Assembly: GCA_002781185.1 (NCBI GenBank)
Contig: PEUU01000020.1
Span: 1-58,711 of the forward strand
Source: Candidatus Jorgensenbacteria bacterium CG03_land_8_20_14_0_80_38_39
GTDB lineage: Bacteria; Patescibacteriota; Minisyncoccia; UBA6257; GWB1-50-10
Reading direction: 5' to 3'
Length of the DNA: 58,711 nucleotides
In this document: positions 2,177-56,435 of the stretch, piece by piece
How positions within the stretch are numbered: the first letter of the stretch is position 1
Layout of the letters: the number at the start of each line of letters is the position of its first letter
Program-made: the position numbers and the translations under genes
The notes under the pieces: model-generated
Seen by the model: the letters and a program-made list of their open reading frames with translations, nothing else
Told to the model about the DNA's origin: nothing
Databases searched by the model: none

Positions 2177-2202
2177 AGAATTTCAGTGAAAATCAAATGT
2201 CT

Positions 2203-2230
2203 CAGATATCCCACATATGTGGGATATCTG
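2203..2230. repeat. Perfect 28-bp palindrome centred on ACATATGT
   Basis: The sequence cagatatcccacatatgtgggatatctg is self-complementary. Confidence 0.9.
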
Positions 2231-2270
2231 AAGACTCAAAAATTAGAAAGATATCCTTGAATTGAAATAA

Positions 2271-2312
2271 TGAACTAGCTTTTATCAGCGATAGCAAATA
2301 AAAGCTAGTTCA
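2271..2312. repeat. Hairpin with 15-bp perfect arms
   Basis: tgaactagcttttat pairs with ataaaagctagttca across a 12-nt loop. Confidence 0.8.
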
Positions 2313-26406: not shown

Positions 26407-26529
26407 CGATCCAAAACTACGAATCTTACGAATCTATCAGCGATTCAAAACTACGAATCCATCCGAATCTACAAATATATGAATAAATAATTTCTTTAAG
26501 AATAAAAGCGATCCAAAACTACAAATCGG
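26407..26529. repeat. Copies of the tacgaat/tacaaat repeat family
   Basis: cgatccaaaactacgaatcttacgaatctatcag (26407-26440), cgattcaaaactacgaatccatccgaatctacaaat (26441-76) and cgatccaaaactacaaatcgg (26509-29). The same about 36-nt unit occurs in 16S insertion 4 and inside rpe. Confidence 0.85.
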
Positions 26530-26535
26530 TTCAGG

Positions 26536-26609
26536 GATCCTTCGTCGTGGAATTTAGATGATAGCTTCGCTAGATCCTTCGTCGTAAAATTTAGATGATA
26601 GCTTCGCTA
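26536..26609. repeat. 37-bp tandem direct repeat (2 copies)
   Basis: gatccttcgtcgtggaatttagatgatagcttcgcta occurs twice with 2 mismatches. The first 26 nt recur at 34598-34623. Confidence 0.9.
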
Positions 26610-26617
26610 TCACTTGT

Positions 26618-27175
26618 TTATAAAACTAAGGAATTGCCGACTTCGTAAACTGTAGCATTGTCACCGCCATCTGTGGAAACCACATCCGAGCCTCCGCTGC
26701 TTCCATACTTAGTACTTTCCATTCGGGCATCAATTTCGTATGTCGTACTGCTACAACCGTAAGAATAAAAATAACTGGTGCTATTAACCGGGTCCATTGG
26801 TTCTTTGGACAAAGGCGAACCAGCTGAAATAGAGGCAAAATTAACATCCACCCAGCCAGTGTTAGTGACAGAAGTGGAAGTGGAAACACTGCAAGCCGTC
26901 CGAGTTGTTAAACCCGAGGTGCTGCTGGCCGTACATCTGGCAGTACCGCCGGCACAAGTTCCTAAAGAAGGCGAACTAACATCAGCTAAGTACAGGGAAA
27001 TGGCGCTGTTTAAAGCAGCCAAATCAGAAATTCTGGTTGAATCCCGAGCTTGTTTTAAAAGCTGAGCCGGGTTTAAAACCGTTATTACGGCCGTGGCTAA
27101 AATCGCCAAGATAGCAATAACAATTAAAAGTTCAATCAAAGTAAAACCCTTTTTTGAATTAATTTTGTTTCGCAT
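26618..27175 (-). CDS. Type IV (major) pilin
   Basis: 185 aa with the prepilin leader followed by KGFTLIELLIVIAILAILATAVI, then a Ser/Thr/Cys-rich globular part. Confidence 0.85.
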   Translation of the reverse strand: MRNKINSKKGFTLIELLIVIAILAILATAVITVLNPAQLLKQARDSTRISDLAALNSAISLYLADVSSPSLGTCAGGTARCTASSTSGLTTRTACSVSTSTSVTNTGWVDVNFASISAGSPLSKEPMDPVNSTSYFYSYGCSSTTYEIDARMESTKYGSSGGSDVVSTDGGDNATVYEVGNSLVL

Positions 27176-28100: not shown

Positions 28101-28262
28101 TAGAGCAAAGCGAATTAAAAACTTTTTTGTTGTCCCAATAATCGTGCCTCGCTAATGTTCAGCACGATTTCGACAATAAATTTAATTAATCCACGCACAG
28201 CTTCCGCTACGCGTGCCTTGTTACGACTTCACCCATGTCACCGAGCTTACCCTAACCCAGCT

Positions 28263-28396
28263 TTTTGTTCTCAAGAACAAAAAGCGGCGCTGACTTACGT
28301 TGACTAAACGCTGACCCACGCAGAATTTCTTCCGCGTCGGTCTGCGTAATGTCTGCGTTCTTCCGCGAGCTTTTTGCGCTTCAGCGCAAAAAGCTG
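28263..28396 (-). other. 16S insertion 1, tip of helix 44 (about 134 nt, no ORF)
   Basis: It is flanked by cccagc/gctggg. Two terminal mini-hairpins (ctttttgttc-tcaa-gaacaaaaag and ctttttgcgc-ttca-gcgcaaaaag) enclose an imperfect hairpin of acgc/gcgt-rich units. Confidence 0.75.
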
Positions 28397-28764
28397 GGCT
28401 TTAGGTACTCCCGGCTCCCTTGGTGTGACGGGCAGTGAGTACAGGACTCGAGAACGTATTCACCGCGGCGTGCTGATCCGCGATTACTAGCGATTCCGGC
28501 TTCATGAGGGCGAGTTGCAGCCCTCAATTCGAACTGAGACCGAGTTTGATGGGATTAGCTCCGCCTTACGGCTTAGCAACCCATTGTCCCGGCCATTGTA
28601 ACATGAGTGTCGCCCAGGGCATCAAAGGGCCATGCTGATTTGACGTCGTCCTCACCTTCCTCCGTCTATACGACGGCAGTCTCTTCTGACACTTATAACA
28701 GAAGACAAGGGTTGCGCATGTTTCCCCATTGAAGGGAGCGCCTCACGGCACATGCTGACGGCCA

Positions 28765-29699
28765 TATTATTCCATTATTACTAATGGTATGGACTATACC
28801 ATCACCCTCTTCTTTTAAGAAAAAGAAGGGGGGACCGGCGTTTTATTCTTTATTTTACAAAAGAATAAAATCTCTAAGGTCTTTTTGAGATTAAGTCTCT
28901 ACGGGGTATGAATACTGATTTTTGTAATTTTAATGAATACGGAAAAATTAAGGAAAGAAATTTTTTAGTCTCTAATCTAGAAAAATACAAACAAAAAGTT
29001 TTAGCGCTATGATAATTATAGATTTTTATTCTCCGAAAACCTAACGATTGTATAAGTATTCTGTCTTGTTCTGCCTCCTCTTTATTGCTATAAACAATAC
29101 GACAATCGCTATAAAAATCTTTTGCCACAGAACCATCTCCATCAAATCTGCCTGCCATATAAGGCGAGATCAGTTTTCTGACAATAAAATTACTTAGATT
29201 ATTCTCTAATCCCTTAAATTCCCTCAACAAAGGACGACTATTTACATATAAATGATACGCTTTGGTGCGTCTTTTAAATTTATCTGGTCTGTAAATATAA
29301 AGTTTTAATCTTTTCTCGGGGAAAAATCTCAGAAAAAATTCACGAAATTTATCTATTAACAAAGTATTAGTATTACTTATACCAATACTACTTCCCCAAT
29401 AATAACCATCTGCGCACCACAAACCTAATATATAAGCATCGTCTTTTGTCTTAAAATTCCAAAAATCAGTATTCATACTTCCCACGGTATTACCCATCTG
29501 TTCGCTTCGCGAACACGCTGATTTACGCTGATTAATACGCTGATAAACGCTGATAAAAATTCCGCGTAAATCCGCGTCAGCGCCAAAGGCGCTAAAATCC
29601 GCGTTTATCCGTGTGTTTTACGAAGTAAAATGATTAGGGCTTCACCGTTATGAGCCAGTTTTTCATTCTAAATTTCTCTAGAATGGGTCGACATTTCAA
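28765..29699 (-). mobile_element. 16S insertion 2 (E. coli position about 1050), about 935 nt intron-like element with LAGLIDADG ORF
   Basis: The conserved ctgacggccat | … | catgcagcacctgt is split, and the boundary is ambiguous by the 4-nt ccat repeat. The insertion contains several hairpins and an acgctgat/atccgcgt repeat block at 29515-29613. Confidence 0.75.
28874..29497 (-). CDS. LAGLIDADG homing endonuclease (inside the 16S insertion)
   Basis: 207 aa with two LAGLIDADG-like motifs (ILGLWCADGYYWG and YMAGRFDGDGSV). It is on the same strand as the rRNA. Confidence 0.8.
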   Translation of the reverse strand: MGNTVGSMNTDFWNFKTKDDAYILGLWCADGYYWGSSIGISNTNTLLIDKFREFFLRFFPEKRLKLYIYRPDKFKRRTKAYHLYVNSRPLLREFKGLENNLSNFIVRKLISPYMAGRFDGDGSVAKDFYSDCRIVYSNKEEAEQDRILIQSLGFRRIKIYNYHSAKTFCLYFSRLETKKFLSLIFPYSLKLQKSVFIPRRDLISKRP

Positions 29700-29839
29700 C
29701 CATGCAGCACCTGTCCCGGCGTCCTTGAAAGAAAATTTTCCTTTCGGAAAATCGTCACCGGGATTTCAAGCCCTGGTAAGGTTCCTCGCTTACCATCGAA
29801 TTAAACCTCATGTTCCACCGCTTGTGCGAGTCCCCGTCT

Positions 29840-29871
<32 letters not shown>

Positions 29872-29967
29872 TCCCAGGCGGTCCACTTAATGCGTTAGCT
29901 ACGCCACTCCGAGGGTCGATACTCGAAACAGCTAGTGGACATCGTTTAGGGCGTGGACTACAAGGGT

Positions 29968-30337
29968 CAAGTTGTTACTTCGTAACAATCGCAGACTTAC
30001 GCTGACTTCACGCTGACTTACGCAGAAGTAAACGTAGACACGAGTTACGCGACACAGACATTTCTGCTGTGTTCTGTATATCGCTATACAGGTCGGACTA
30101 TATCTTCACCCGTTTAAATTTTACTTGTGTAAAATTTTGACGGGGTTTGGCGTGTAGTCTCTACGGAGTCCTGTTAGTCATAACAGGTTCCCTCGGTGTT
30201 TTCCATAAAATGGATTTTCACCGATATAGCCAAATTACACTTTAATATTGCTACTAAATGAGACACCATTGTTGCTTCGTGTCCGCGTCAGTCCGCGTTA
30301 AGTCCGCGTCTGTCTGCGGTTTCGCGAAGCGAAACGT
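29968..30337 (-). other. 16S insertion 3, within the 785-806 block (about 370 nt, no ORF)
   Basis: It splits ggactacaagggt | atctaatcc. The ends carry inverted GCGT-rich repeat arms (29989-30035 versus 30279-30320) and terminal mini-hairpins (gttgttac-ttc-gtaacaa and gtttcgc-gaa-gcgaaac). Confidence 0.75.
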
Positions 30338-30653
30338 ATCTAATCCTTTTTGCTCCCCACGCTTTCGCGCCTCAGGGTCAGGAACGTCCCAGCAGAATGC
30401 CTTCGCCTTTGGTGTTCCAGCCGATATCAACGGATTTCACCCCTACACCGGCTGTTCCATCTGCCTCTAACGCCCTCAATCCCGCTCATCTCTTCAGCGG
30501 CCTTAGGGTTAAGCCCTAAGATTTAACTGAAGATGCAGCGGGACCCCTACGCGCCCTTTACGCCCAATAAATCCGGATAACGCTTGGGGCCTTCGTATTA
30601 CCGCGGCTGCTGGCACGAAGTTTGCCACCCCTTATTCTATTCCTACTATCAAT

Positions 30654-30789
30654 CGTGTCTCGCTATCGCTCATCACCTTACGATTCCAAACTACGAATGC
30701 ATCCGAATCTACGAAAATAAATTTCAAATTTGTAGATTCGCATCAATTTGTAGTTTTGGATCGGTAGTGTCGAACAATAGTGAGACACG
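30654..30789 (-). other. 16S insertion 4, V3 region (about 136-nt hairpin)
   Basis: The outer stem is cgtgtctc…gagacacg. The inner arms are gattccaaactacgaatgcatccgaatctacgaa (30682-30715) and its imperfect complement (30729-30763). Confidence 0.7.
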
Positions 30790-31044
30790 ACTTTATCGGA
30801 ATAAAAAGCAGTTTACAACCCTAGGGCCTTCATCCTGCACGCGGCGTCGCTCGATCAGGCTTTCGCCCATTGTCGAATATTCTCGACTGCTGCCTCCCGT
30901 AGGAGTACGTTCCGTGTCTCAGTAACGTCGTTGGGGAATAGCCTCTCAGCTCCCCTACCCGTCGTCGCCTTGGTGGGCCATTACCTCACCAACAAGCTGA
31001 TAGGACCTAGGCCGCTCCCGAAGCGACTTGCGTCTTTACTGGTA

Positions 31045-31205
31045 ATTGGATTTTATTCGCAAGTCGCTTCAGAATTTCTAATTTCTAATTTTTAATTTCT
31101 AATAAATGATTTAATGACTTAATGTTTAAAAATTAAATCACTAAAAATTGATTGAAAATTTAAAATTGAAAATTGAAAATTGAAGAACTTGTAAACAAAA
31201 TCCAA
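31045..31205 (-). other. 16S insertion 5, helix 10 / V2 region (about 160 nt)
   Basis: The stem is ctggtaattggatttt / aaaatccaactaccag. The arms are heptamer arrays aatttct x4 and attgaaa x5. Confidence 0.65.
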
Positions 31206-31295
31206 CTACCAGACTATAGGATATTACCCAATCTTTCGACTGGCTATTTCCTACTTTGGGGTATGTACCAAGGTGTTACTAACTCGTTCGCCACT

Positions 31296-31730
31296 GTCAG
31301 ACATCAGACATTAGAAATCGGATTTCGGATTTTTTGAATTAATGAATTAATTTGTTTTGATTCCACTTTATATTCTTCGATTAATGCATCGCAATTTCCA
31401 CAATTTACATTGGAAAAGTTTAAAATTCTTATCTGCCACAAATGCGTAATTGTTTCATCTGAGGAACCAAGCGCCATATAAAGAAAACGTTTGAATTCGT
31501 TTTGCGAGTTCTTTTTTGCGAATCCCTCAGTAATCTGAGCGGAAATCGCTTTGGCTGAATTACAAACTTGAGATTTTAATTCAAATTCGTTTCGTGGCAA
31601 TTGATTTACCAGTTCATAAATTCTCGGCAATAAATCCATTGCCCTTTTATAAATTTGTAATTCCGTTACGTCTTTCATTAAATCCAATTATATCACCCGA
31701 AATCTGAACTCTGAAGTCTGATATCTGACC
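31296..31730 (-). mobile_element. 16S insertion 6, helix 6 / V1 (about 435 nt) carrying a four-helix-bundle ORF
   Basis: It splits cgttcgccact | cgttcgacttgcatg. Inverted arms gtcagacatcagacattagaaatcggatttcgg (31296-) and ccgaaatctgaactctgaagtctgatatctgac (-31730) can form a long stem around the ORF. Confidence 0.8.
31304..31687 (-). CDS. Four-helix-bundle protein of the 23S rRNA intervening-sequence protein family
   Basis: 127 aa. IYKRAMDLLPRIYELVNQLPRNEFELKSQVCNSAKAISAQITEGFAK…GSSDETITHL resembles the S23p / IVS four-helix-bundle family. It is paralogous to 43238-43621. Confidence 0.75.
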   Translation of the reverse strand: MDLMKDVTELQIYKRAMDLLPRIYELVNQLPRNEFELKSQVCNSAKAISAQITEGFAKKNSQNEFKRFLYMALGSSDETITHLWQIRILNFSNVNCGNCDALIEEYKVESKQINSLIQKIRNPISNV

Positions 31731-34530: not shown

Positions 34531-34655
34531 TGACAGTTTCGCTGTCACCCATCGTCGTTTCGCTTCTCAGGATGACAGTTTCGCTGTCAGTTGAGAGATC
34601 CTTCGTCGTGGAATTTAGATGACAGTTTCGCTGTCAGTTGACAGCGAAGCTGTCA
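34531..34655. repeat. Cluster of four gacag…ctgtc mini-hairpins plus a copy of the 26536 repeat
   Basis: tgacagtttcgctgtca occurs at 34531, 34573 and 34620, and tgacagcgaagctgtca at 34639 followed by ttttt. gatccttcgtcgtggaatttagatga (34598-34623) is identical to 26536-26561. The cluster lies between convergent genes and likely acts as a terminator. Confidence 0.8.
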
Positions 34656-35402
34656 GTTTTTGAGGGCCTTAATAATCGGTTCCAATTCTCCATTTAGAAT
34701 ATTTTCTATATTGTGCCACTTCTTATTAATTCGGTGGTCAGTAATTCGGTCTTGAGGAAAATTATAAGTCCGAATTTTTTCCTCTCTTTCCGCCCAACCA
34801 ACTTGCTCTTTCCTTAAAGCGTCTATTTTTTGCTCTTCAGCGGTTTTTTGAATTTCATAAAATTTGGCTCTTAAAATATTCATTGCTAATTCTTTGTTTC
34901 TGGCTTGCGACCGTTCGCTTTGAGAAGCTACCACTAGACCGCTGGGGATGTGTCGGATTCTAACAGCGGTTTCCACTTTATTGACATTTTGGCCGCCCGG
35001 CCCGGAGGAATGAAAAAAGGTAATCTCCAGGTCTTGAGGATTTATTTGAATTTCTTTTGGCTCAACTTCCGGTAATATTGCCACCGAAACTGTAGAAGTA
35101 TGAATTCGGCCGGATTTTTCTGTCTCGGGAACCCGCTGAACCCGATGAACTCCGGATTCGTTTTTCAAAATCTCATAGAGATTTTGTCCTGAGCTCGTCG
35201 AAGGACTACTTATTTCGGCAATTAAAGTTTTATAACCTTTTAAAGAACTTTGGCTATAATCCAAAATAATAAACTGCCAACCTTTTTTGACGGCGTATTT
35301 TTGATACATCCGGCCTAAATCACCGGCAAAAAGCGCTGCTTCCTCGCCGCCGGTGCCAGCGCGAATTTCTAAAATAATTTTACTAATTGATTTTGATTCC
35401 AT
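34653..35402 (-). CDS. prfA: Class I peptide chain release factor, RF1-like, lacking N-terminal domain 1
   Basis: 249 aa. It starts at the RF domain-2 motif ILEIRAGTGGEEAALFAGDL. It has an RF1-type tripeptide position (RVPETE) and the GGQ motif (SGPGGQNVNK). The 243 bp upstream are non-coding repeats. Confidence 0.8.
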   Translation of the reverse strand: MESKSISKIILEIRAGTGGEEAALFAGDLGRMYQKYAVKKGWQFIILDYSQSSLKGYKTLIAEISSPSTSSGQNLYEILKNESGVHRVQRVPETEKSGRIHTSTVSVAILPEVEPKEIQINPQDLEITFFHSSGPGGQNVNKVETAVRIRHIPSGLVVASQSERSQARNKELAMNILRAKFYEIQKTAEEQKIDALRKEQVGWAEREEKIRTYNFPQDRITDHRINKKWHNIENILNGELEPIIKALKN

Positions 35403-35480: not shown

Positions 35481-35520
35481 AAATCCCTATATTTAACACC
35501 AAATCCCTATATTTAACGCC
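35481..35520. repeat. 20-bp direct repeat x2
   Basis: aaatccctatatttaacRcc occurs twice. taaactcgac also occurs twice, at 35601 and 35625. Confidence 0.85.
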
Positions 35521-35542
35521 AAGAAAACGCCAGAACCGCCAT

Positions 35543-35576
35543 CCTCAAAACTGTAACATATGTTACAGTTTTGAGG
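35543..35576. repeat. Perfect 34-bp palindrome downstream of PaaX-like paralog A
   Basis: cctcaaaactgtaacatatgttacagttttgagg. Confidence 0.95.
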
Positions 35577-35645
35577 CACTATCTCTACCTCGATACCATC
35601 TAAACTCGACGATGTTATTTCTCTTAAACTCGACAGCGCTATTTT

Positions 35646-36152
35646 TTATTTAACATTAAAACGCCTTTTTAGCTCGTCAGCGCCCTCAATGATATCCACA
35701 ATCATCGGCAGGCAATATTTCTCTATTTTCTGTTCCACAATCCATTCCCAGACATCTGCGGCTAACTTCTGAGATCCTAACCATACGCTTTTCTGCAAGG
35801 GAATAAAATTGTATGCCCTCAATAACCTTGTAAGGGCGATTCTTTTGGAGTTAAAATTCACCGGAATATCAAAACTCAATATGTACCATTGCCCTTTTTC
35901 ATTAAATACTGGGACGGCCGGGTGATAACGACGAAACAGTTTTTTGCCGCTGGGGGTAAGGATAATCTTTTTTTGATGCGCCTGAAGAAAACCTCGTTCA
36001 ATGAGTCGTTTTAAACTTTGACGCAAATATTTTTTTCGTCTGTGACGCTCAATAAATTCCTCAACAAGAAACGTTCCCGCTTCACCAAGGTCAGAGAAAA
36101 ATTCGCTCCACTCGCGTATATGTCTTCGAGCATCTCGTGATGTTTTAGCCAT
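35646..36152 (-). CDS. PaaX-like protein: winged HTH + Cas2-like ferredoxin-fold domain (paralog A)
   Basis: The ATG at 36152 is preferred (the track start at 36170 is a TTG inside the palindrome). The wHTH segment is LKRLIERGFLQAHQKKIILTPSGKKLF. The Cas2/PaaX-central-like motif is WYILSFDIPVNFNSKRIALTRLLRAYNFIPLQKSVWLG. Confidence 0.6.
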   Translation of the reverse strand: MAKTSRDARRHIREWSEFFSDLGEAGTFLVEEFIERHRRKKYLRQSLKRLIERGFLQAHQKKIILTPSGKKLFRRYHPAVPVFNEKGQWYILSFDIPVNFNSKRIALTRLLRAYNFIPLQKSVWLGSQKLAADVWEWIVEQKIEKYCLPMIVDIIEGADELKRRFNVK

Positions 36153-36164
36153 AATAATTGCTAT

Positions 36165-36198
36165 CCTCAATATTGTATCATATGATACAAGATTGAGG
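36165..36198. promoter_or_regulatory. 34-bp palindrome (one mismatched pair) 13 nt upstream of paralog A; candidate operator
   Basis: cctcaatattgtatcatatgatacaagattgagg shares the frame CCTCAA-N3-TGTA-N-CATATG-N-TACA-N3-TTGAGG with 35543-35576. Confidence 0.6.
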
Positions 36199-36246
36199 AA
36201 ACAAAAAAATTATAAAAACCATGGAAGATTTGTTTAATTTGTTTAA

Positions 36247-36883: not shown

Positions 36884-37786
36884 TTAAGGAATTTTATTAA
36901 ATAATCTCAATCTTTGTTCAACTACCTTTTCTATTTCCCCAATTACTTCCGGCATTACTTTGTAAGGGGCCACTTCTCCGGGATGTTCTTTTAAAGATTC
37001 TTCCAATCCCTTTCGCCAAACCAGCCGGATTTCGGTACTGATATGAATAATTGAAATGCCGGCATCAATGGCAGCCAAAAAATCTTCATCGCTAATACCC
37101 GAGCCGCCATGAAGAACTAAAGGAATTTTAACGGCTTTTTTTATCTCCCGAATTCTTTCAATGTCCAAACGGGGATTGCGGGCATTTTTAAACATTCCGT
37201 GAACATTGCCAACAGCCGGCCCTAATAAATCTATCCCCGTTTCCCTGACAAAGGTATTGGCATCTTCGGGTTTGGTAAAATCTTCGGGGCAAATAGCCAC
37301 TCCCGGCGGCACCTTTTTTAAAAGTTGCGAAGAACTGCCGATATAACCCAATTCTCCCTCAATTAAAATTTCTTTTCTCTGCCTGACGGCTATTTTCTTA
37401 ATTATCTTGACGGCTTTTTTTGTTTCTTTGATATTTTCTTTAAACGGCAACTTGCTAGCGTCAAAAAGAATTTCATTAAAGCCGACTTCTGCCGCTTCTT
37501 TTACTTTTTCCAACGAATGAGTATGGTCAGCGTTTAAAAATAACCAAAATCCGGCATTGGTTGAGACATCGCCGTATTCTTTGTTATAGCTGGCGACAAA
37601 ATCATAAATATGAGAAATTCCCAAATATTCGCGTTCTCCTTCAGAAACGCCGATAATAACCGGCACATCCAGTTTTATTGCTGCCCGAGCAATAGCTTCT
37701 AACTGTTCAAGGGTGGCAATATTAAAATGGCCGATGGCAATTTTTTTCTTTTCTGCTTCTTGAATTGCCTGTTTTAGGGTTTTCAT
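36884..37786 (-). CDS. fba: Class II fructose-bisphosphate aldolase family
   Basis: 300 aa with motifs GHFNIATLEQ, NADHTHS and LVLHGGSG. Confidence 0.85.
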   Translation of the reverse strand: MKTLKQAIQEAEKKKIAIGHFNIATLEQLEAIARAAIKLDVPVIIGVSEGEREYLGISHIYDFVASYNKEYGDVSTNAGFWLFLNADHTHSLEKVKEAAEVGFNEILFDASKLPFKENIKETKKAVKIIKKIAVRQRKEILIEGELGYIGSSSQLLKKVPPGVAICPEDFTKPEDANTFVRETGIDLLGPAVGNVHGMFKNARNPRLDIERIREIKKAVKIPLVLHGGSGISDEDFLAAIDAGISIIHISTEIRLVWRKGLEESLKEHPGEVAPYKVMPEVIGEIEKVVEQRLRLFNKIP

Positions 37787-43675: not shown

Positions 43676-44536
43676 TTATTGATGCTCTGATTTAATTCTC
43701 CTGCCAAGTGTCCTTAGTTCTTCTAATGCTTTTTTTGCTTCTTCTTTATTCGGCGGTTTGCCATGCCATTCAAATTTATTTTCCATAAAATCAACGCCTT
43801 TGCCGGGAATGGTATGGGCGATAATAACCGTTGGTTTTTCAAAAATAGCGACGGCTTCATTAACCGCATCAACCAATTCCCTCATATTATGGCCGTCAAT
43901 TTCAATCACCTGCCAATTAAAGGCTTCATATTTTTCTCTTAAAGGTTCCAGGGGCATAACATTTTCGGTAAAACCGTCAATTTGAATATTATTACGGTCA
44001 ATGACCGCGGTTAAATTACTTAAACGATATTTGGCGGCAAACATTACCGCTTCCCAAATATTACCTTCTTGTTGTTCGCCATCAGACATCAAACAATAAA
44101 TGCGATATTTTTTTCTATCAAGTCTCGCGGCTAAAGCCATTCCTATTGCCTGCGATAAACCGCAACCCAAAGGTCCGGAAGTAGTTTCAATGCCCGGCAA
44201 AGAACCCCGATGAGGATGACCTTGGAGCCGGGAATTTATTTTTCTCAAGGTTCCCAATTCTTCTAAAGGAAAATAACCGGCAAAAGCCAAAACCGCGTAA
44301 AGAGCCGGACAAATATGACCGTTGGACAAAACCAATCTGTCCCGCTCCGGCCAATGCGGTTCGCTCGGCCGATGATTTAAAATGTGAAAATAAAAAGCCG
44401 CCAAAATATCAGCCATCCCCAAAGAACCGGCTGAATGCCCCGAACCAGCTTCAACAAGCATTCTGATAATTGCCTGTCTAATTTCATTGGCTTTTTCTTC
44501 TAATTTTTTCAGTTTTTCTTCGTGAAGTGGTTCCAT
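43676..44536 (-). CDS. Transketolase, N-terminal half (thiamine-diphosphate binding)
   Basis: 286 aa with motifs GHSAGSLGMADI, SNGH and SDGEQQEGN. Confidence 0.9.
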   Translation of the reverse strand: MEPLHEEKLKKLEEKANEIRQAIIRMLVEAGSGHSAGSLGMADILAAFYFHILNHRPSEPHWPERDRLVLSNGHICPALYAVLAFAGYFPLEELGTLRKINSRLQGHPHRGSLPGIETTSGPLGCGLSQAIGMALAARLDRKKYRIYCLMSDGEQQEGNIWEAVMFAAKYRLSNLTAVIDRNNIQIDGFTENVMPLEPLREKYEAFNWQVIEIDGHNMRELVDAVNEAVAIFEKPTVIIAHTIPGKGVDFMENKFEWHGKPPNKEEAKKALEELRTLGRRIKSEHQ

Positions 44537-44694: not shown

Positions 44695-44700
44695 CTTTAT

Positions 44701-44738
44701 TGTCACATTTAATACGCCATGGCATAATAGAGGTGACA
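44701..44738. promoter_or_regulatory. Imperfect 38-bp palindrome ending 1 nt before the paralog B start codon; candidate operator
   Basis: tgtcac-atttaatac-gccatggc-ataatagag-gtgaca. Confidence 0.55.
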
Positions 44739-44739
44739 A

Positions 44740-45354
44740 ATGCGAAATAATGACAATAAGAAAATGATACAAAGAGTTGATATCCGTAATATCCGGAAGA
44801 ACTCAAGAGCTTACAAGATTCTAAAATACCTTGCTCTCGGTTCTGGATTCATTATCCTCTCTACCATCTCGCCCTATGGTGGCGCTAGAGTGGTGAAAAG
44901 CCTTATTCAGAATTATCTTAGACGGAAGCGTTTTGAAAAATACCGATTCTTAACTGATTTAAAAAATTTACAAAAAAGAGATTTAATTGATTATCAAGAT
45001 CTCGGAAATGGCAATGTTAAGATAATTATCACCGCTCGGGGAAAACAAAAAGTTCTTCTCAACAATATTGATGAGATAAAACTAAAGAAACAAAAACGAT
45101 GGGATGGTAAATGGAGATTGATAATATTTGATATTCCTCATAGCCGCAAAGGAGCGCGCGACGCCTTCCGAAAAATATTGAAAAATTTGGGCTTCTATCC
45201 CCTTCAGAAAAGTGTTTTCATCACGCCTTATCCCTGTGAAAATGAAATAGATTTTATTGCCTCAATCTTTGACATCCGCCAAAATGTGCTCCTGCTCTAC
45301 GTAAACAATTTTGAAGGCGAAGAAAAACTAAAATATCACTTCAAAATTAAATAA
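44740..45354 (+). CDS. PaaX-like protein: winged HTH + Cas2-like domain (paralog B)
   Basis: 204 aa with an N-terminal hydrophobic segment. The wHTH segment is LKNLQKRDLIDYQDLGNGNVKIIITARGKQKV. The Cas2/PaaX-like motif is WDGKWRLIIFDIPHSRKGARDAFRKILKNLGFYPLQKSVFITPYP. Confidence 0.65.
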   Translation: MRNNDNKKMIQRVDIRNIRKNSRAYKILKYLALGSGFIILSTISPYGGARVVKSLIQNYLRRKRFEKYRFLTDLKNLQKRDLIDYQDLGNGNVKIIITARGKQKVLLNNIDEIKLKKQKRWDGKWRLIIFDIPHSRKGARDAFRKILKNLGFYPLQKSVFITPYPCENEIDFIASIFDIRQNVLLLYVNNFEGEEKLKYHFKIK

Positions 45355-45358
45355 ACTC

Positions 45359-45400
45359 TAGAATGTCACCGTTAGAATGTCACCGTTAGAATGTCACCGT
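45359..45400. repeat. 14-bp direct repeat x3, each carrying a TGTCAC half-site
   Basis: tagaatgtcaccgt occurs three times, starting 5 nt after the paralog B stop. Confidence 0.9.
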
Positions 45401-45426
45401 TATTAAGCCATGGCTTAATAACGGTG
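45395..45426. repeat. Perfect 32-bp palindrome downstream of paralog B
   Basis: caccgttattaagccatggcttaataacggtg has the same TGTCAC-N9-GCCATGGC frame as 44701-44738. Confidence 0.95.
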
Positions 45427-45558
45427 TAGTCAAAATATTTTACTTAAATATTTATTTAAATATTTTATCTACAAATATTTTATCTACAAATATTTTATCT
45501 GATATTTATATATTTATATTTAATATTTATCTGATATTTATCTAAATCCAATAAACTC

Positions 45559-45588
45559 TTGACAAATTAGAAAGAAATATGCTATACT
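45559..45588 (+). promoter_or_regulatory. Near-consensus sigma70 promoter
   Basis: TTGACA-18 nt-TATACT. AT-rich tandem repeats (aatattttatctaca x3) precede it at 45440-45545. Confidence 0.65.
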
Positions 45589-45686
45589 CCAAGCAGAAAG
45601 TGAAAGTTTCGCCTTGCCTAGCCAAGGTGTTTGAAAATCCGACTTCTGATGCTAGGTAGAGGAAGTCAAAATAAGGAGACACAACA

Positions 45687-45860
45687 ATGAAAGCACTGAA
45701 ACTCTTCTTCCTGCTGGTGGCCATGGCATCGATGGTAGGAATGGCGTTCAATGTTGTTGGCGGGACAGAAGGAGAAAATCCTAATCTTCTGTTTTGGCTA
45801 GTTGTCTTTGTCGTAGCATTGCTCTGCACAATGCTAACGACAAAAAAGCCGGTGAAGTAA
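45687..45860 (+). CDS. Small hydrophobic protein (57 aa, two TM segments)
   Basis: Hand-translated as MKALKLFFLLVAMASMVGMAFNVVGGTEGENPNLLFWLVVFVVALLCTMLTTKKPVK. AAGGAG lies 8 nt upstream. It has a structured leader of about 95 nt and its own terminator. Confidence 0.55.
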   Translation: MKALKLFFLLVAMASMVGMAFNVVGGTEGENPNLLFWLVVFVVALLCTMLTTKKPVK

Positions 45861-45890
45861 AGTAGTAATAGACCGGCAAAAATGTAAAAA

Positions 45891-45922
45891 GGGTCTTCCC
45901 AAGGAAGACCCTGTATTTTTTT
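45891..45922 (+). terminator. Intrinsic terminator
   Basis: gggtcttcc-caa-ggaagaccc is followed by tgtattttttt. Confidence 0.8.
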
Positions 45923-45956
45923 CTCAAAATAGTTATTATCTTTTTATTCTAAAATC

Positions 45957-46682
45957 TCACACCTTGCCCAATTTCTCTAAAGTGGTTTTGGGATTACTGC
46001 TCCCCCAAATGTAGGAAGCAGAAACCAAGATGTCTGCCCCGGCTCTTTTTGCTAATCTGGCGGTTTCCAAATTAATTCCGCCGTCAACTTCTATGACAAG
46101 GCTGGGAAATTTTTTTCTTAAGAATTGAATTTTGCTTAAAACTTTTGGTTGAAATTTTTGGCTGGCCCAGCCCGGTTCAACTGCCAAAATTTGAATAAAT
46201 TTAAAATCCTTTAAATAAGGGATTATTTTTTCAACCGGCGTCTCCGGATTAATCGCCAAACCCAATTCAACATCATTTGCTTTACATTTTTTAAAAATTA
46301 AACTGAAAACTTTCCGACTCATTCGTAGATTCGGATAAATTTGTAGTTTGGAATCAGTTATGGCTTCCAAATGAACAATAATTCTCTTCGCTCCGGCTTT
46401 CACCCAATCCTCAATTACCGCCTCAGGATTTTCAACCATCAAATGGCTTTCCAAATTAAACTTCCAACCGGCATTTTTAAGAAATTTTTTTAAATTTTGA
46501 AGGTCTTTTAAATCATTGCCCCAAGTTTTTGCCGCGGTAAATTTGCCGTCGCTAATATCAAACTGAACCCAAGGACTCCCCAGTTTTTTAACCTGTCTTA
46601 ATTTTTTAGTGACGCAAGGCCAATTTAAACAATTAATGGCCGGAATTACTGCCGGTCCTCTTTTTTCAGAAACCGCTTTCAT
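45957..46682 (-). CDS. rpe: Ribulose-phosphate 3-epimerase with repeat-encoded insertion
   Basis: 241 aa with Rpe-like motifs (HLMVENP, GLAINPETP, EVDGGIN). DSKLQIYPNLRM is encoded by a copy of the tacgaat repeat at 46320-46355. Confidence 0.85.
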   Translation of the reverse strand: MKAVSEKRGPAVIPAINCLNWPCVTKKLRQVKKLGSPWVQFDISDGKFTAAKTWGNDLKDLQNLKKFLKNAGWKFNLESHLMVENPEAVIEDWVKAGAKRIIVHLEAITDSKLQIYPNLRMSRKVFSLIFKKCKANDVELGLAINPETPVEKIIPYLKDFKFIQILAVEPGWASQKFQPKVLSKIQFLRKKFPSLVIEVDGGINLETARLAKRAGADILVSASYIWGSSNPKTTLEKLGKV

Positions 46683-47154
46683 TTTTAAGAGAACCGCTTT
46701 CTAAAATTTCACTTTCCACTTGAACAATTTTACTTAAACGTCTTTGGTGGCGGGGTTCGTCGGAAAAAGGCGTGCTTAACCAAACTCTGACAATCTTTTT
46801 AGCCGCTTCCCCATCTAAAAAATCAGCAGCTAAAGTTAAAACATTGGTATTAATATCATTACGGCTGTCAAAAGCTTGGTTGGGACTCATTGCCAAAGCC
46901 GAACGGACATTAGGAAATTTATTGGCAACGACATCCACCCCCACTCCTGAACCGCAAATGACAATGCCCCGGGAACTTTCAAAACCCCGGCTGACTTTTC
47001 TGGCAACCGCCGCGGCAAAATCAGGGTAATCATCGTCCTCATCATAATGGTCATTGCCCAAATCAGCTATTTCAAATCCCTCGTTTTTTACAAAATCTTT
47101 CAAATATTCCTTTAGTTTAAAACCCAAGTGGTCGGCACCGAAATAAATAATCAT
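46666..47154 (-). CDS. rpiB: Ribose-5-phosphate isomerase B
   Basis: 162 aa with motifs GADHLGF and ICGSGVGVDVVANK. Confidence 0.9.
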   Translation of the reverse strand: MIIYFGADHLGFKLKEYLKDFVKNEGFEIADLGNDHYDEDDDYPDFAAAVARKVSRGFESSRGIVICGSGVGVDVVANKFPNVRSALAMSPNQAFDSRNDINTNVLTLAADFLDGEAAKKIVRVWLSTPFSDEPRHQRRLSKIVQVESEILESGSLKNESGF

Positions 47155-47936: not shown

Positions 47937-48983
47937 TCATTTGTCAAGGACTAAATTTGCCACATCTTGCACGTGTTTCACCAGTGTCGCTGCGTAACCC
48001 CATTCGTTATCATACCAAGAAAGAATTTTTACCAAATCCTTGTCAATGACTTTAATGAAATTCAAATCAATGATTGCTCCGTAGGGCTCGCCAATAATAT
48101 CCGAGGAAACCAATTGTTCTTCAGTAACTTTTAAAATCCCCTGCCAGCGCGGTTCTTGACTGGCTTTTTTAAAAATTTCCTTAATTTCTTCTACCGAGGT
48201 TTCTCGCTTGGCCACAAAAGTAATGTCGGCAATGGAGCTAGTGAGCAAAGGCACTCTTAAAGCGAACCCGTCAAATTTTCCTTCCAGTTCTTTAATCACT
48301 CGGGTGACGGCAATCGCCGCGCCAGTGGTGGAAGGCACAATATTTTGAGCGCCGGCCCGGCCGCGCCGCCAATCGCTTCCCTTTGTCGGCCCATCAACTA
48401 AATTTTGAGTGGCAGTATAAGCGTGAACAGTATTTAAAATGGCTTTTTTAATTCCCGGATTTTCTGCCATAATAGCCATTACCGGCGAGACAGCATTAGT
48501 GGTGCAAGAAGCGTTAGAGGTTAAAACCACGGAATTTAACTCGCCTTCATTTATTCCTATTAAAATAGTCTTGCCTTCAGGACCATCGGCATCTTTGGCC
48601 GGGGCAGTGATAATTACTCTTTTGGCGCCGGCTTGAAGATGAACTTTGGCTTTTTCATAAGATTCAAAAATTCCCGTGGCTTCAATCACAACATCAATTT
48701 TTAAATCTTTCCAGGGCAATTTAGCCGGTTCTTTTTCCTGAAGAACTAAAATTTTTTTATCATCAACCATCAAATAATTCTGCGTAAATCCGCCTTCAGT
48801 CTGCGTCAATCCGCGAATTTCCGCAGGAAATTGTCGGTACACGGAATCGTATTTCAAAAGATAAGCGAGATTATCAACACTGCCCAAATCATTGATGGCG
48901 ACAATTTCAAAATCCGGCTGATTAAAAGCTTGCCTAAAAAACAACCTTCCTATTTTTCCAAACCCATTTATAGCAATACGCAT
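47937..48983 (-). CDS. gap: Glyceraldehyde-3-phosphate dehydrogenase
   Basis: 348 aa with INGFGKIGR, the active site SNASCTTN and WYDNEWGY. An extra RGLTQTEGGFTQ segment is encoded by GCGT-type repeats at 48780-48827. Confidence 0.9.
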   Translation of the reverse strand: MRIAINGFGKIGRLFFRQAFNQPDFEIVAINDLGSVDNLAYLLKYDSVYRQFPAEIRGLTQTEGGFTQNYLMVDDKKILVLQEKEPAKLPWKDLKIDVVIEATGIFESYEKAKVHLQAGAKRVIITAPAKDADGPEGKTILIGINEGELNSVVLTSNASCTTNAVSPVMAIMAENPGIKKAILNTVHAYTATQNLVDGPTKGSDWRRGRAGAQNIVPSTTGAAIAVTRVIKELEGKFDGFALRVPLLTSSIADITFVAKRETSVEEIKEIFKKASQEPRWQGILKVTEEQLVSSDIIGEPYGAIIDLNFIKVIDKDLVKILSWYDNEWGYAATLVKHVQDVANLVLDK

Positions 48984-49213
48984 AATTTATATTAAAAAAT
49001 AATTATTTTAGCGAGGCCGACTTCGTCTGCTGGAAAGCGACTACGTCGTCCGAAGGCTGACTTGCCCCGTCTTAAGTTCCGCAGAAATTTTAGCGCAAGG
49101 TTTTTCAAAAATAGCCTTCTCAAGATATTTTTATTATAACAAAATTATTACAACAAATCCAGCAATTTCTCCGTCTTTAAATCCAGCAATCTTATTACAA
49201 CAAATCCGGCAAT

Positions 49214-49353
49214 TCTTTCATCTTCTTTTATCTGCGGATATACAGTTTTGTCTGCGGATAGACAAATAACTTTAGTCAACAAATCTTTCATCTTCTTTTA
49301 TCTGCGGATATACAGTTTTGTCTGCGGATAGACAAATAACTTTAGTCAACAAA
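49214..49353. repeat. Perfect 70-bp tandem duplication
   Basis: The unit is tctttcatcttcttttatctgcggatatacagttttgtctgcggatagacaaataactttagtcaacaaa. Each copy ends with the left part of the C-type palindrome. Confidence 0.9.
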
Positions 49354-49380
49354 CTCACGATCGTGAGTTTGTTGACTAAA
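49341..49380. repeat. Perfect 40-bp palindrome (C-type), downstream of the giant gene
   Basis: tttagtcaacaaactcacgatcgtgagtttgttgactaaa is identical to 55468-55507. Confidence 0.95.
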
Positions 49381-55384: not shown

Positions 55385-55467
55385 AGTAAAAAATCGCCCC
55401 CTCACTAGGCCTTTAATAAATTATAGCAAATTGCTTTCAAGCCTTCTTAGCCAAGCCTGTGGATAAC

Positions 55468-55507
55468 TTTAGTCAACAAACTCACGATCGTGAGTTTGTT
55501 GACTAAA
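55468..55507. repeat. Perfect 40-bp palindrome (C-type), downstream of paralog C
   Basis: tttagtcaacaaactcacgatcgtgagtttgttgactaaa. Confidence 0.95.
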
Positions 55508-55526
55508 CTGTTACCGTCCGTCAATT

Positions 55527-55602: not shown

Positions 55603-56190
55603 TTAAAGATTTAATTTCTTTAATGTTCCCGTTTGAGTAATTTTAAAGATATGTACAGAATCAATTAAATCTAATTCTGCTAAAGCGTTTAAAAACTCTT
55701 CTGGCAATTTATTTCTGCCAATCCAGACGCTTTTCTGAAGCATTGTAAACCCCAAAGCCAATAAAGTAGATCTCAGCCAATCTCGTTTTGCTCTGTGTTT
55801 TTCAGGAATGTCAAAAACAATGAGATTTATATCATTGTCTTTTTCGTGTCTAACATTAAATAGAGGAAAGTGAAAGGTAATTTTAATTTTTTCTAATTTT
55901 TCCCTACCTAAAGATGTAATCGTCCACCATGTTTTGTTTCCCTTTTGCTTCTTTTCTACAAAGCCCTGCCTTTTTAACCTTGAAAGCAAACTATAAAATT
56001 TATGTTTTTCTTTTTGTAATAATTTAGGATTGATTCTTGTTGTGTCCGTTTTAGAGAAATCGGGGAGCGTCGGATAAAATACCCTCCTTTTCATTTTTTT
56101 GTAATCATAACCGCTAAGAAATATATTAAGGAGAGATTCAGTTATCCGTCCAGTCTTTTTTAAAATTTCCAAAATTAATTGAGTTTTCAT
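55603..56190 (-). CDS. PaaX-like protein: winged HTH + Cas2-like domain (paralog C)
   Basis: 195 aa. The wHTH segment is LSRLKRQGFVEKKQKGNKTWWTITSLGREKL. The Cas2/PaaX-like motif is INLIVFDIPEKHRAKRDWLRSTLLALGFTMLQKSVWIG. Confidence 0.65.
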   Translation of the reverse strand: MKTQLILEILKKTGRITESLLNIFLSGYDYKKMKRRVFYPTLPDFSKTDTTRINPKLLQKEKHKFYSLLSRLKRQGFVEKKQKGNKTWWTITSLGREKLEKIKITFHFPLFNVRHEKDNDINLIVFDIPEKHRAKRDWLRSTLLALGFTMLQKSVWIGRNKLPEEFLNALAELDLIDSVHIFKITQTGTLKKLNL

Positions 56191-56236
56191 AATTAGTATT
56201 TATTTAATCTTATTTTAATCCTATTTTATTCTTAAA

Positions 56237-56278
56237 TTTTAGTCAACAAACTCACGATCGTGAGTTTGTTGAGTAAAA
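56237..56278. promoter_or_regulatory. 42-bp palindrome (one mismatched pair), C-type, upstream of paralog C; candidate operator
   Basis: ttttagtcaacaaactcacgatcgtgagtttgttgagtaaaa. Confidence 0.6.
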
Positions 56279-56435
56279 TGGAAAGCAACGGAAGCCGAAG
56301 AATTAGTAAATAATAAAATATAAAACTGAGGCAGAGTTAGTAAATAATAAAATAGTGGAAAGTGACGAAATTCGGATTAATAAAATAGTAAAAAGCGACA
56401 AAATTCGAATCAATAAAATCCTAAGTAATAAAATA
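56279..56435. repeat. Degenerate tandem array of about 33 bp period (4-5 units), each ending aataaaat(a)
   Basis: aataaaata occurs at 56312, 56347, 56379, 56412 and 56427. Units 3 and 4 (gtggaaagtgacgaaattcggattaataaaata / gtaaaaagcgacaaaattcgaatcaataaaat) are about 70% identical. Confidence 0.7.

Follow-up and report, generated by a model that had tools for sequence, protein, structure and literature searches.

In the REP/RAYT systems (REPtrons) of proteobacteria, a single-copy and vertically inherited gene is flanked by palindromic repeats of its own type; each gene type has its own repeat, and further extragenic copies of the repeats (REPs) lie mostly at the 3′ ends of genes. The E. coli regulator PaaX, for its part, binds TGATTC(N27)GAATCA and represses its own promoter, Px (PMC9493321). 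In this study, we describe three genes for short PaaX-like proteins, referred to as paralogs A, B and C, together with the long palindromes that bracket each of them, in a stretch of DNA of 58,711 nucleotides (contig PEUU01000020.1 of Candidatus Jorgensenbacteria bacterium CG03_land_8_20_14_0_80_38_39; hereafter the window). The window has a GC content of 38.5% and, since it carries a 16S rRNA gene and its proteins have relatives in metagenome-assembled genomes (MAGs) of Jorgensenbacteria and other Parcubacteria, it represents a genome fragment of an uncultured, ultra-small bacterium of the Patescibacteria, or Candidate Phyla Radiation (CPR), whose genomes are very small and in which the control and insulation of genes are barely understood. 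Three members of the family are present in less than 60 kb of such a genome here.

A first-pass annotation, made from the sequence alone, had proposed that each paralog is bracketed by long palindromes that follow one plan but are unique to their locus, and that gene and palindromes form either a self-contained autoregulatory or insulator module or a selfish unit in the style of REP/RAYT. The pairing of gene and palindrome is real and statistically solid, and bracketing on one plan is seen for A, B and C in the window as well as among 80 loci from other Patescibacteria. The palindromes are not, however, unique to their own loci: a third copy of the C type and two orphan palindromes occur in the window, and copies of the A type are dispersed in metagenome contigs. 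As for the two proposed readings, both are still the leading ones, the former having the precedent of PaaX in its favor and the latter the dispersed copies.

Paralogs and palindromes in the window

All three proteins score above the cut-off (24 bits) of the Pfam model PaaX_M (PF20803), with 33.9 bits for A (E-value 3.5e-8), 76.4 bits for B (1.8e-21) and 64.1 bits for C (1.2e-17). Pfam matches to the winged helix-turn-helix (wHTH) are weak, and Cas2 models give weak to significant matches for A, B and C (E-value 3e-5 for C); the cas2 model TIGR01573 (cut-off 24.5 bits) is matched by B with 28.0 and by C with 26.3 bits, over the first 40 positions of the model only. The PaaX equivalog model TIGR02277, with a cut-off of 264.55 bits, gave 29.4 bits for B, 35.2 bits for C and no match for A. 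Sequences found by a profile search of the PDB were 3kfw, 8a39 and Cas2. In the AlphaFold (AF2) model of A, which was built from 31 sequences and has a mean pLDDT of 83.8, helices at residues 3-20, 27-35 and 40-52 and a beta wing at 56-65 are followed by a beta-alpha-beta-beta-alpha-beta domain. The top Foldseek match of the model is E. coli PaaX (8a39, E-value 3e-5), on which it superposes over 175 columns, the next being Rv0674, and the C-terminal half of A retrieves Cas2, GhoS and VapD after these two. Paralog A thus consists of a wHTH (residues ~1-75), a WDGKW-type linker and a Cas2-like domain (residues ~89-165). No Pfam match to PaaX_C, the effector (phenylacetyl-CoA) domain of PaaX, was obtained for A, B or C, which at 168-204 amino acids end with the Cas2-like domain. 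The predicted wHTH plus Cas2-like, PaaX-like fold is therefore well founded. The sequence motif that the first-pass annotation had given for the three paralogs is present too, but with corrections: two residues separate the (L/I) position from the F in A and B, and C is without the W.

Identity among the three paralogs is 23-31%, and A has orthologs at 38-99% identity; as these begin with MAKTSRDA, the start of A was placed at the ATG at 36152. Conservation is concentrated in the second half of the protein: in an alignment of 139 family members, 17 columns conserved at 80% or more fall in the linker and Cas2-like half and 4 in the wHTH half, and D95, R104 and S122 are invariant. Domain matches comprised wHTH, PaaX_M and Cas2 only, with no recombinase domain and no HUH (Y1) transposase among them, and PADLOC returned Cas2-type matches only, without a defense-system context. 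A search of the window for CRISPR arrays found none, no cas genes stood out in the open reading frames (ORFs) that were examined, and no Cas1-like gene is among those beside the three genes, although no dedicated Cas1 search of all ORFs of the window was made.

The positions of genes, palindromes and associated elements are given in Table 1. The window contains seven palindromes with a zero loop and 13 or more matched pairs in each arm, while 30 dinucleotide shuffles of it contained none (28 times) or one (twice); counts of the central hexamers in the window gave no decisive signal. For A, the two palindromes are related to each other, 34 bp long and zero-loop, and both agree with the earlier description, one lying just before the ATG and the other, a perfect one, lying 70 bp past the stop codon and 141 bp before a release-factor gene. 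From the candidate promoter of A, the upstream palindrome would extend from about +4 to +37 of the predicted transcript. The upstream B palindrome itself contains a promoter-like TTGTCA-17-CATAAT and a Shine-Dalgarno-like run, AGAGGTGA, and in the upstream C palindrome the outer TTGACT could serve as the -35 element of a promoter-like TTGACT-17-TAGGAT. Downstream of B, a tandem repeat (45359-45402, 14 bp x3.1) repeats the outer arm of the palindrome. The third C-type copy is practically a duplicate of the downstream one, 49336-49380 matching 55463-55507 at 45/45 positions. A terminator scan at the A, B and C loci called none.

Table 1. Family genes, palindromes and nearby elements in the window
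Feature	Position	Strand	Remarks
Paralog A gene	35646-36152	-	168 aa; ORF, orthologs
Paralog B gene	44740-45354	+	204 aa
Paralog C gene	55603-56190	-	195 aa
Upstream A palindrome	36162-36201 (core 36165-36198)		core CCTCAATATTGTATCATATGATACAAGATTGAGG; 16/17 pairs; end 12 nt before ATG
Downstream A palindrome	35543-35576		CCTCAAAACTGTAACATATGTTACAGTTTTGAGG; perfect, 17/17 pairs
Promoter-like TAAACA-16-TATAAT	36209-36236	-	consensus match only
Upstream B palindrome	44700-44739		centre GCCATGGC; imperfect, 83%
Downstream B palindrome	45395-45426		CACCGTTATTAAGCCATGGCTTAATAACGGTG; perfect
Upstream C palindrome	56236-56279		centre CACGATCGTG; near-perfect, 44 bp
Downstream C palindrome	55466-55509		between C and 202-aa gene; near-perfect, 44 bp
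Third C-type palindrome	49341-49380		81 bp after stop of 1774-aa gene
Orphan palindrome	2202-2231		TCAGATATCCCACATATGTGGGATATCTGA; CATATG centre, arms not A-type; perfect; no family gene nearby
Orphan family-type palindrome	2271-2312		centre GCGATAGC; no family gene nearby
Tandem repeat near paralog A	35481-35522		AAATCCCTATATTTAACACC; 20-bp unit x2.1

Some further structures adjoin the palindromes without a family gene. Near the third C-type palindrome, which lies 358 bp upstream of a GAPDH-like gene, a 70-bp unit is tandemly duplicated at 49210-49353 (98-99% identical) and ends in the left half of a C-type palindrome, so that a half-site copy is found 70 bp from the full one. The two orphan palindromes lie in an 800-bp gap after a serpin-like gene, beside two other structures: a GC-rich imperfect inverted repeat (1741-1861), whose 57-nt arms are 72% complementary, and, apart from it, a hairpin (2113-2176; 20-bp arms, 22-nt loop). 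Rfam returned no family for either structure; an RNA gene that escaped annotation, or a group of regulatory sites, may be located here.

Pairing of gene and palindrome across the family

A profile search of 1.84 billion representative proteins gave 6231 clusters (50% identity) at an E-value of 1e-3 or less, nearly all of 160-220 amino acids. No family members were found in the viral contigs scanned, and thus there is no sign of a phage origin. A pattern scan with one genome per species yielded 80 loci with relatives, nearly all from Patescibacteria MAGs, in which family genes were located by hidden Markov model and palindromes then sought. Among 82 family genes, 30 have a zero-loop palindrome (11 or more matched pairs per arm) just upstream, 39 just downstream and 25 on both sides, and the density of zero-loop palindromes is 1.19/kb within a few hundred bases of the ends of family genes compared to 0.069/kb elsewhere in the same loci. 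When 76 family genes were compared with control genes (genes of the same loci more than 500 bp from a family gene), a palindrome was present at the 3′ end of 45% versus 5% and at the 5′ end of 36% versus 2% (Fisher p ~1e-12). The palindromes near family genes are also of a particular design. Of these, 68 have no loop, 20 a loop of 2 and 6 a loop of 4, whereas away from family genes each loop length between 0 and 4 is represented to about the same extent (24-30 each), and five central hexamers, CGATCG (20), CTATAG (14), CGGCCG (9), CATATG (8) and CCATGG (7), account for 58 of the 68 centres next to family genes. A C-N4-G centre is thus nearly universal, while the arms vary between loci.

Within a locus the upstream and downstream copies are alike, and the type of arm is common to orthologs. 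The CCTCAA outer block and the CATATG centre are kept by seven A orthologs (L001, L002, L003, L087, L088, L112 and L116), and a more distant one (L118, 48% identical) has three copies of GCCTCAATTTTAACCACGTGGTTAAAATTGAGGC, in which CCTCAA is kept and the centre is now CACGTG, another C-N4-G. Orthologs of B retain GCCATGGC, and a C ortholog from a Wolfebacteria MAG (L056) keeps TAGTCAA and CACGATCGTG with symmetric differences in between. Over 43 genes, protein similarity and half-site similarity are correlated (Mantel r = 0.12, reached by 16 of 2000 permutations), and gene pairs with a normalised score above 0.5 share 9.3 of 16 half-site bases compared to about 6 for other pairs. The palindromes thus co-vary with orthology. 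Judging from these sequences, the variable wHTH may correspond to the variable arms and the conserved Cas2-like domain to the conserved centre. The likeness of the two copies differs from locus to locus: they are identical on both sides of the gene in L043 and L068, among others, and strongly diverged in some loci such as L052. In L004 (2875-2965) and L118 (2892-3019), two palindrome copies stand in tandem upstream of the A ortholog, and L004 has none downstream.

The gene neighborhood is conserved as well. Genes resembling A adjoin a fructose-bisphosphate aldolase gene, near the L25 gene, in L001/L081, L010, L040 and L071, and genes resembling C adjoin homologs of the genes for the 202-aa protein and the giant surface protein on the same strand in L031 and L068 and divergently in L051. 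An element that brings its own gene along and has moved recently would not show such a pattern.

With regard to placement, gaps between tandem genes hold 47 of the long zero-loop palindromes of all loci, gaps between convergent genes 20 and those between divergent genes 4, a further 4 lying inside genes; the background of intergenic gaps comprises 286 tandem, 71 convergent and 78 divergent ones (chi-square p 0.002). Many downstream copies begin 0-8 bp past the stop codon, and the upstream copies at the A, B and C loci overlap promoter-like elements or the leader. Perfect copies make up 7/30 of those upstream and 18/39 of those downstream (p 0.08). The stems have a GC content of 34% and a loop of 0, and a T-run follows in 9/75; among the palindromes with other centres, a T-run after or an A-run before is present in 8/11, and a T-run after in 5/11. 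Being AT-rich and having few U-tracts, the palindromes are unlikely to be intrinsic terminators. A comparison of upstream and downstream copies in 24 loci showed 359 positions to be the same, 52 to have changed symmetrically and 29 to have changed in one arm or to be broken. Mismatches are G:T in 16 and A:C in 14 cases, with no strand bias. The zero loop, the self-complementary central four bases and the unbiased mismatches together argue against a sense-strand RNA hairpin and for a DNA object of two-fold symmetry. Quasi-palindromes are known to be corrected by template switching, a mutational bias, and the symmetry at unconstrained positions could be kept either by such correction or by selection of a hairpin or cruciform.

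Dispersed copies and possible modes of action

A scan of JGI metagenome contigs with the pattern CCTCAANNNTGNANCATATGNTNCANNNTTGARG returned 31 loci. In five of them (L087, L088, L104, L108 and L112) the matches flank an A ortholog, and in L102 a related gene lies 4.6 kb from the site and has its own variant palindrome alongside. The remaining A-type matches are orphans, spread over about ten different intergenic contexts from two or more lineages. According to the identities of the neighboring genes, which were read from translations and, for M23, ComM and serine hydroxymethyltransferase (SHMT), taken from Pfam, these copies are found upstream of the GlyA and the YidC genes, between the gene for MraY and an amidohydrolase-like one, between ComM and M23-peptidase genes in convergent orientation, in a convergent gap beside the stop codon of a superoxide dismutase gene, beside RNase H, 2 bp past the stop of Fmt, and between genes for a HAD hydrolase and a tRNA-binding protein. 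Over 34-38 bp, the dispersed A-type copies hardly differ from one another; they are without U-tracts, and the flanks of the orphan ones are unrelated except for an extension of about 11 bases, ACAAGGGAAAT, which is identical in two contexts and partly present in three more. The GlyA, MraY, ComM/M23 and YidC contigs have a window-like GC content and were sampled in the same series as a contig with 99% identity to the A locus; their tetranucleotide correlation with the window is 0.96-0.995, the window's own 8-kb blocks giving 0.967-0.986 and the unrelated CPR locus L113 also reaching 0.976. On composition and sample series, these contigs probably belong to the same population as the window or a very close one. 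A second set of orphan copies is on contigs of 47-50% GC, like the A ortholog L112, and the two sets have no context in common. The number of copies appears to differ as well, since a 295-kb contig (Ga0075895_13) returned only its two flanking copies, compared to at least five orphan contexts in window-like contigs. In relatives, the spacer between the convergent M23 and ComM genes is 15-22 bp instead of the 142 bp with the palindrome, the site and ~120 bp of spacer being absent, and no such palindrome is present upstream of GlyA in the relatives examined. A precise pair of insertion and empty site was not obtained, the nearest GlyA being 75% and the nearest M23 peptidase 58% identical, with unalignable intergenic DNA. 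A palindrome of the family type, TTTTCTACCAAAAACGCGATCGCGTCTTTGGTAGAAAA, is also found in L114 (19105-19142), 13 bp past the stop of recA and convergent with folD, with no family gene within 20 kb; since L114, a CPR genome, was arrived at by way of a gene outside this family, the occurrence of orphan copies is not confined to the lineage of the window.

By analogy with PaaX, the bracketed protein most likely binds its palindrome. As to what such binding would bring about, we tentatively favor, while giving it somewhat less than an even chance, a mechanism in which a PaaX-style dimer occupies the whole palindrome, the upstream copy serving autorepression and the copies at 3′ ends and at dispersed sites serving as roadblocks or insulators. 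One dimer would cover the entire 34-40 bp, its two variable winged helices reading the locus-specific outer blocks (CCTCAA ... TTGAGG for A) and its conserved Cas2-like core lying over the C-N4-G centre. The upstream copy, in overlapping the promoter or the 5′ leader, could then repress the gene itself, and the copy after the stop codon, like the dispersed copies at the 3′ ends of other genes, could be a protein-bound obstacle to read-through, whereas perfect symmetry at variable positions would be kept by template switching and not by protein contacts. Binding, the division of labor between the domains, repression and roadblock function are all matters that we infer. The scale fits, in that a PaaX dimer spans ~39 bp and the CPR palindromes, in which 22-30 bp separate the conserved outer blocks, are 34-50 bp long; inverted repeats of PaaX-like span lie at the paralogs' own promoters, where the proteins would bind, and the repression of its own promoter by PaaX is a precedent that supports an autoregulatory or insulator function. 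Several observations nevertheless weigh against this mechanism. The placement of the palindromes, with only four in divergent gaps, does not fit that of an ordinary operator. An upstream copy is present in 6/23 cases if the upstream gene is divergent versus 29/52 if it has the same direction (p 0.02), and a downstream copy is present in 18/27 loci whose next gene is convergent, so that it cannot simply be the operator of that next gene. The 52 symmetric changes, compared to about 3 expected if the arms changed independently, require template switching or hairpin selection. Near-identity of the dispersed A-type copies, and their extension, would be rare for independent operators of one regulon, and the orphan contexts are not common to different lineages, the GlyA and M23/ComM sites being absent in relatives. 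Finally, a module serving dimerisation alone would not need D, R and S to be invariant within its nuclease fold, and E. coli PaaX is without the Asp.

Much of this would be expected if the palindromes were low-copy DNA-hairpin repeats comparable to REPs or REPINs, and the gene their cognate, vertically inherited protein, perhaps cleaving or mobilising them via its Cas2-like domain. Bracketing would in that case be what is left of the element, or its anchor, comparable to the REPs on either side of RAYT genes. On balance we regard this explanation as unlikely, but it has to be taken seriously. A cognate palindrome stands on both sides of the gene with further copies elsewhere; copies of one composition class are almost identical with flanks unrelated save for the extension of ~11 bp in two to five of them; divergent gaps are avoided and 3′ ends favored, as for REPs; copy number varies by lineage (two in Ga0075895_13); the orphan contexts are not conserved; self-complementarity has been kept through the symmetric changes; D, R and S are invariant; and the genes, as RAYTs do, keep their synteny and occur in one copy per type. 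The dispersed copies, being near-identical, lineage-specific and 3′-biased, strengthen the analogy. It is weakened by the lack of HUH or other known transposase chemistry among the domain matches and by copy numbers of units to tens instead of hundreds; to our knowledge, moreover, no Cas2-fold protein moves DNA. A conserved palindromic centre is not required by a hairpin loop, no precise insertion and empty-site pair was seen among relatives at 75% (GlyA) and 58% (M23) identity, and the orphan contigs are tied to the window genome by composition and sample series only, the former being matched by L113. Whether in such a system or not, that the Cas2-like domain, with its invariant D, R and S, is catalytic on its cognate palindromes, with hairpin or cruciform DNA as its substrate and the C-N4-G centre as its site of action, seems doubtful to us.

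It could also be that the device works at the level of RNA, the transcribed palindromes forming mRNA hairpins in the 5′ leader and at the 3′ end that are bound or cut by the wHTH or by the RNase fold of the Cas2/GhoS/VapD type, with predicted effects on the gene's own translation or stability and on 3′-end processing in other genes. The position of the upstream A palindrome within the predicted transcript, its 3′ arm with the only GAGG that precedes the ATG, the many downstream copies starting 0-8 nt past the stop, the ribonuclease activity of the fold relatives Cas2, VapD and GhoS, the maintained complementarity and the favored 3′ ends would all suit such a device, which we nonetheless hold to be decidedly improbable, given that the central four bases are mostly self-complementary (loop of 0 in 68 versus 4 in 6), that G:U-compatible mismatches are not in excess (16 G:T versus 14 A:C), that some upstream palindromes themselves hold promoter elements and that U-tracts are few. 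Very improbable, in our view, is that the palindromes are cores of the recombinase or telomere-resolvase kind, with the gene as an excisable or invertible cassette and the Cas2-like domain acting at C-N4-G. One could cite for it the two arms around a conserved symmetric 6-bp centre, the identical copies on either side of the gene in L043 and L068, the single orphan copies as scars or targets, and again the invariant D, R and S, but no recombinase domain was detected, gene orientation and position are conserved across distant lineages, the copies in L052 and some other loci are strongly diverged and no inverted or excised variants were seen. Least of all do we credit the idea of generic bidirectional terminators unrelated to the protein. 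The palindromes do lie at gene ends and in convergent gaps, but they are 9- to 18-fold enriched at family genes over other genes of the same loci, are similar within a locus and of a type common to orthologs, and have AT-rich stems (34% GC) with a U-tract in only 9/75; the enrichment and co-variation statistics contradict this explanation.

Genomic setting and relation to known systems

The neighbors of the three paralogs are genes for aldolase, release factor, transketolase, RPE/RpiB, the giant surface protein and GAPDH, and no paa genes are among them. Genes of central carbon metabolism adjoin all three (34653-35402, 36884-37786, 43676-44536, 45957-47154 and 47937-48983, all on the minus strand): A is near the aldolase gene, B lies between the gene for the N-terminal subunit of transketolase and RPE/RpiB, and for the C type it is the third palindrome that lies upstream of the GAPDH-like gene. 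This link may hint at what is controlled. The 600-bp gap after paralog B (45430-45956) is dense in AT-rich tandem repeats, and a near-consensus promoter-like TTGACA-18-(TG)TATACT (45559-45588, plus strand) faces a stretch without a convincing ORF or Rfam match, which may be an unannotated small RNA. At the palindromes and repeat-rich gaps, Rfam gave no RNA family, solely hairpin-like microRNA models under threshold, and a tRNA search found none.

Short tandem repeats are found throughout the intergenic DNA of the window (95 rows of Tandem Repeats Finder, TRF, output). The repeats that the first-pass annotation had assigned to the A locus, including two copies of taaactcgac, do exist, but the claim that each locus has short tandem repeats of its own does not stand as a property of the module: since such repeats are spread over the whole window, they are not part of the gene-palindrome modules. 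The 16S rRNA gene (28181-31331, minus strand) is stretched to ~3.15 kb by a group I intron (30074-30283) and other insertions, one of which (~29000-29480) looks like a homing-endonuclease-type ORF. These insertions are packed with short tandem repeats such as ACGCTGATAA and GTCCGCGTCA, and repeats of the GTCCGCGTCA type occur at unlinked positions (14807-14865, 28330-28367, 30281-30318 and 48778-48815), including the rRNA insertions and the region of the GAPDH-like gene. Two QKSVF-like matches, at 28924 and 29460, fall inside the insertions of the rRNA gene and were rejected as chance. Another dispersed repeat family, GATGACAGTTTCGCTGTCAGTTGA (34571-34655), forms a palindrome at 34620-34655, where an SLT-domain gene and the release-factor gene converge, and is found again at 26526-26620; a contig of the same species (L116) has kept it, and its design differs from that of the C-N4-G palindromes.

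A large CPR family of short PaaX/Cas2-like proteins paired member by member with palindromes is apparently undescribed. In keeping with the first-pass annotation, which knew of no description, a search of full-text literature, with subscription journals mostly outside its coverage, found no account of Patescibacteria PaaX-like proteins or of this arrangement. If each member has its own palindrome, one could read from the adjoining DNA what thousands of uncharacterised proteins specifically bind, which is rare, and the family could serve as a ready test set for protein-DNA recognition. The probability that the arrangement is something more unusual than a repressor-operator pair of the PaaX type is appreciable. 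Placement at 3′ ends and strict symmetry point beyond ordinary promoter repression, either to insulation or roadblocks or to a repeat with its cognate protein, and either would be new for the fold. The occurrence of a Cas2-type domain with palindromic repeats of ~35 bp outside CRISPR may also bear on the recruitment of Cas2. Should the domain prove catalytic, one would be dealing with a new class of domesticated repeat systems on the Cas2 fold, parallel to REPIN-RAYT or to recombination cassettes, and with a free-standing Cas2 relative paired with palindromes of CRISPR-repeat size outside CRISPR.

Among known systems, the short proteins are most like PaaX in their probable working, yet they are not PaaX. 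PaaX of E. coli and Pseudomonas (8a39) is the best structural match, with the same winged helix followed by a Cas2-like central domain and a WDGKW linker motif common to both, and its inverted 6-bp blocks, ~33 bp apart from centre to centre, are on the scale of the 34-40-bp palindromes here. Unlike PaaX, the short proteins are half the size, have no C-terminal effector domain and no paa genes nearby, and they keep the Cas2 signature FD(I/V)P and QKSV(W/F), which is absent from E. coli PaaX. Unlike in the PaaX operator, the DNA separating the outer blocks itself forms a perfect palindrome, its centre being conserved; sites are also found at the 3′ end of the protein's own gene and at other gene ends, and a genome has several deeply diverged paralogs, each with its own site. 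With Cas2, VapD and GhoS, the proteins share the ferredoxin-like beta-alpha-beta-beta-alpha-beta fold, the Asp that ends beta-1 and the Q-x-S-V-aromatic motif, and the palindromic partner is close in length to CRISPR repeats; unlike in Cas2, the domain is fused to a winged helix, and the repeats flank the gene singly and are not arrayed with spacers. The bound roadblocks of mTERF, of Reb1/TTF-I and of LacI-type proteins in bacteria terminate transcription on DNA, and a duplex-binding protein at gene 3′ ends could likewise stop or insulate transcription without an RNA terminator, although the analogy is one of mechanism only, the proteins being unrelated. In layout, it is the REPtron that the arrangement resembles, with flanking cognate palindromes, dispersed copies at 3′ ends and one type per gene, but the protein is not an HUH/Y1 transposase like RAYT, copy numbers are far lower, and the palindromes are, unlike REPs, perfect and zero-loop, with a conserved symmetric centre.

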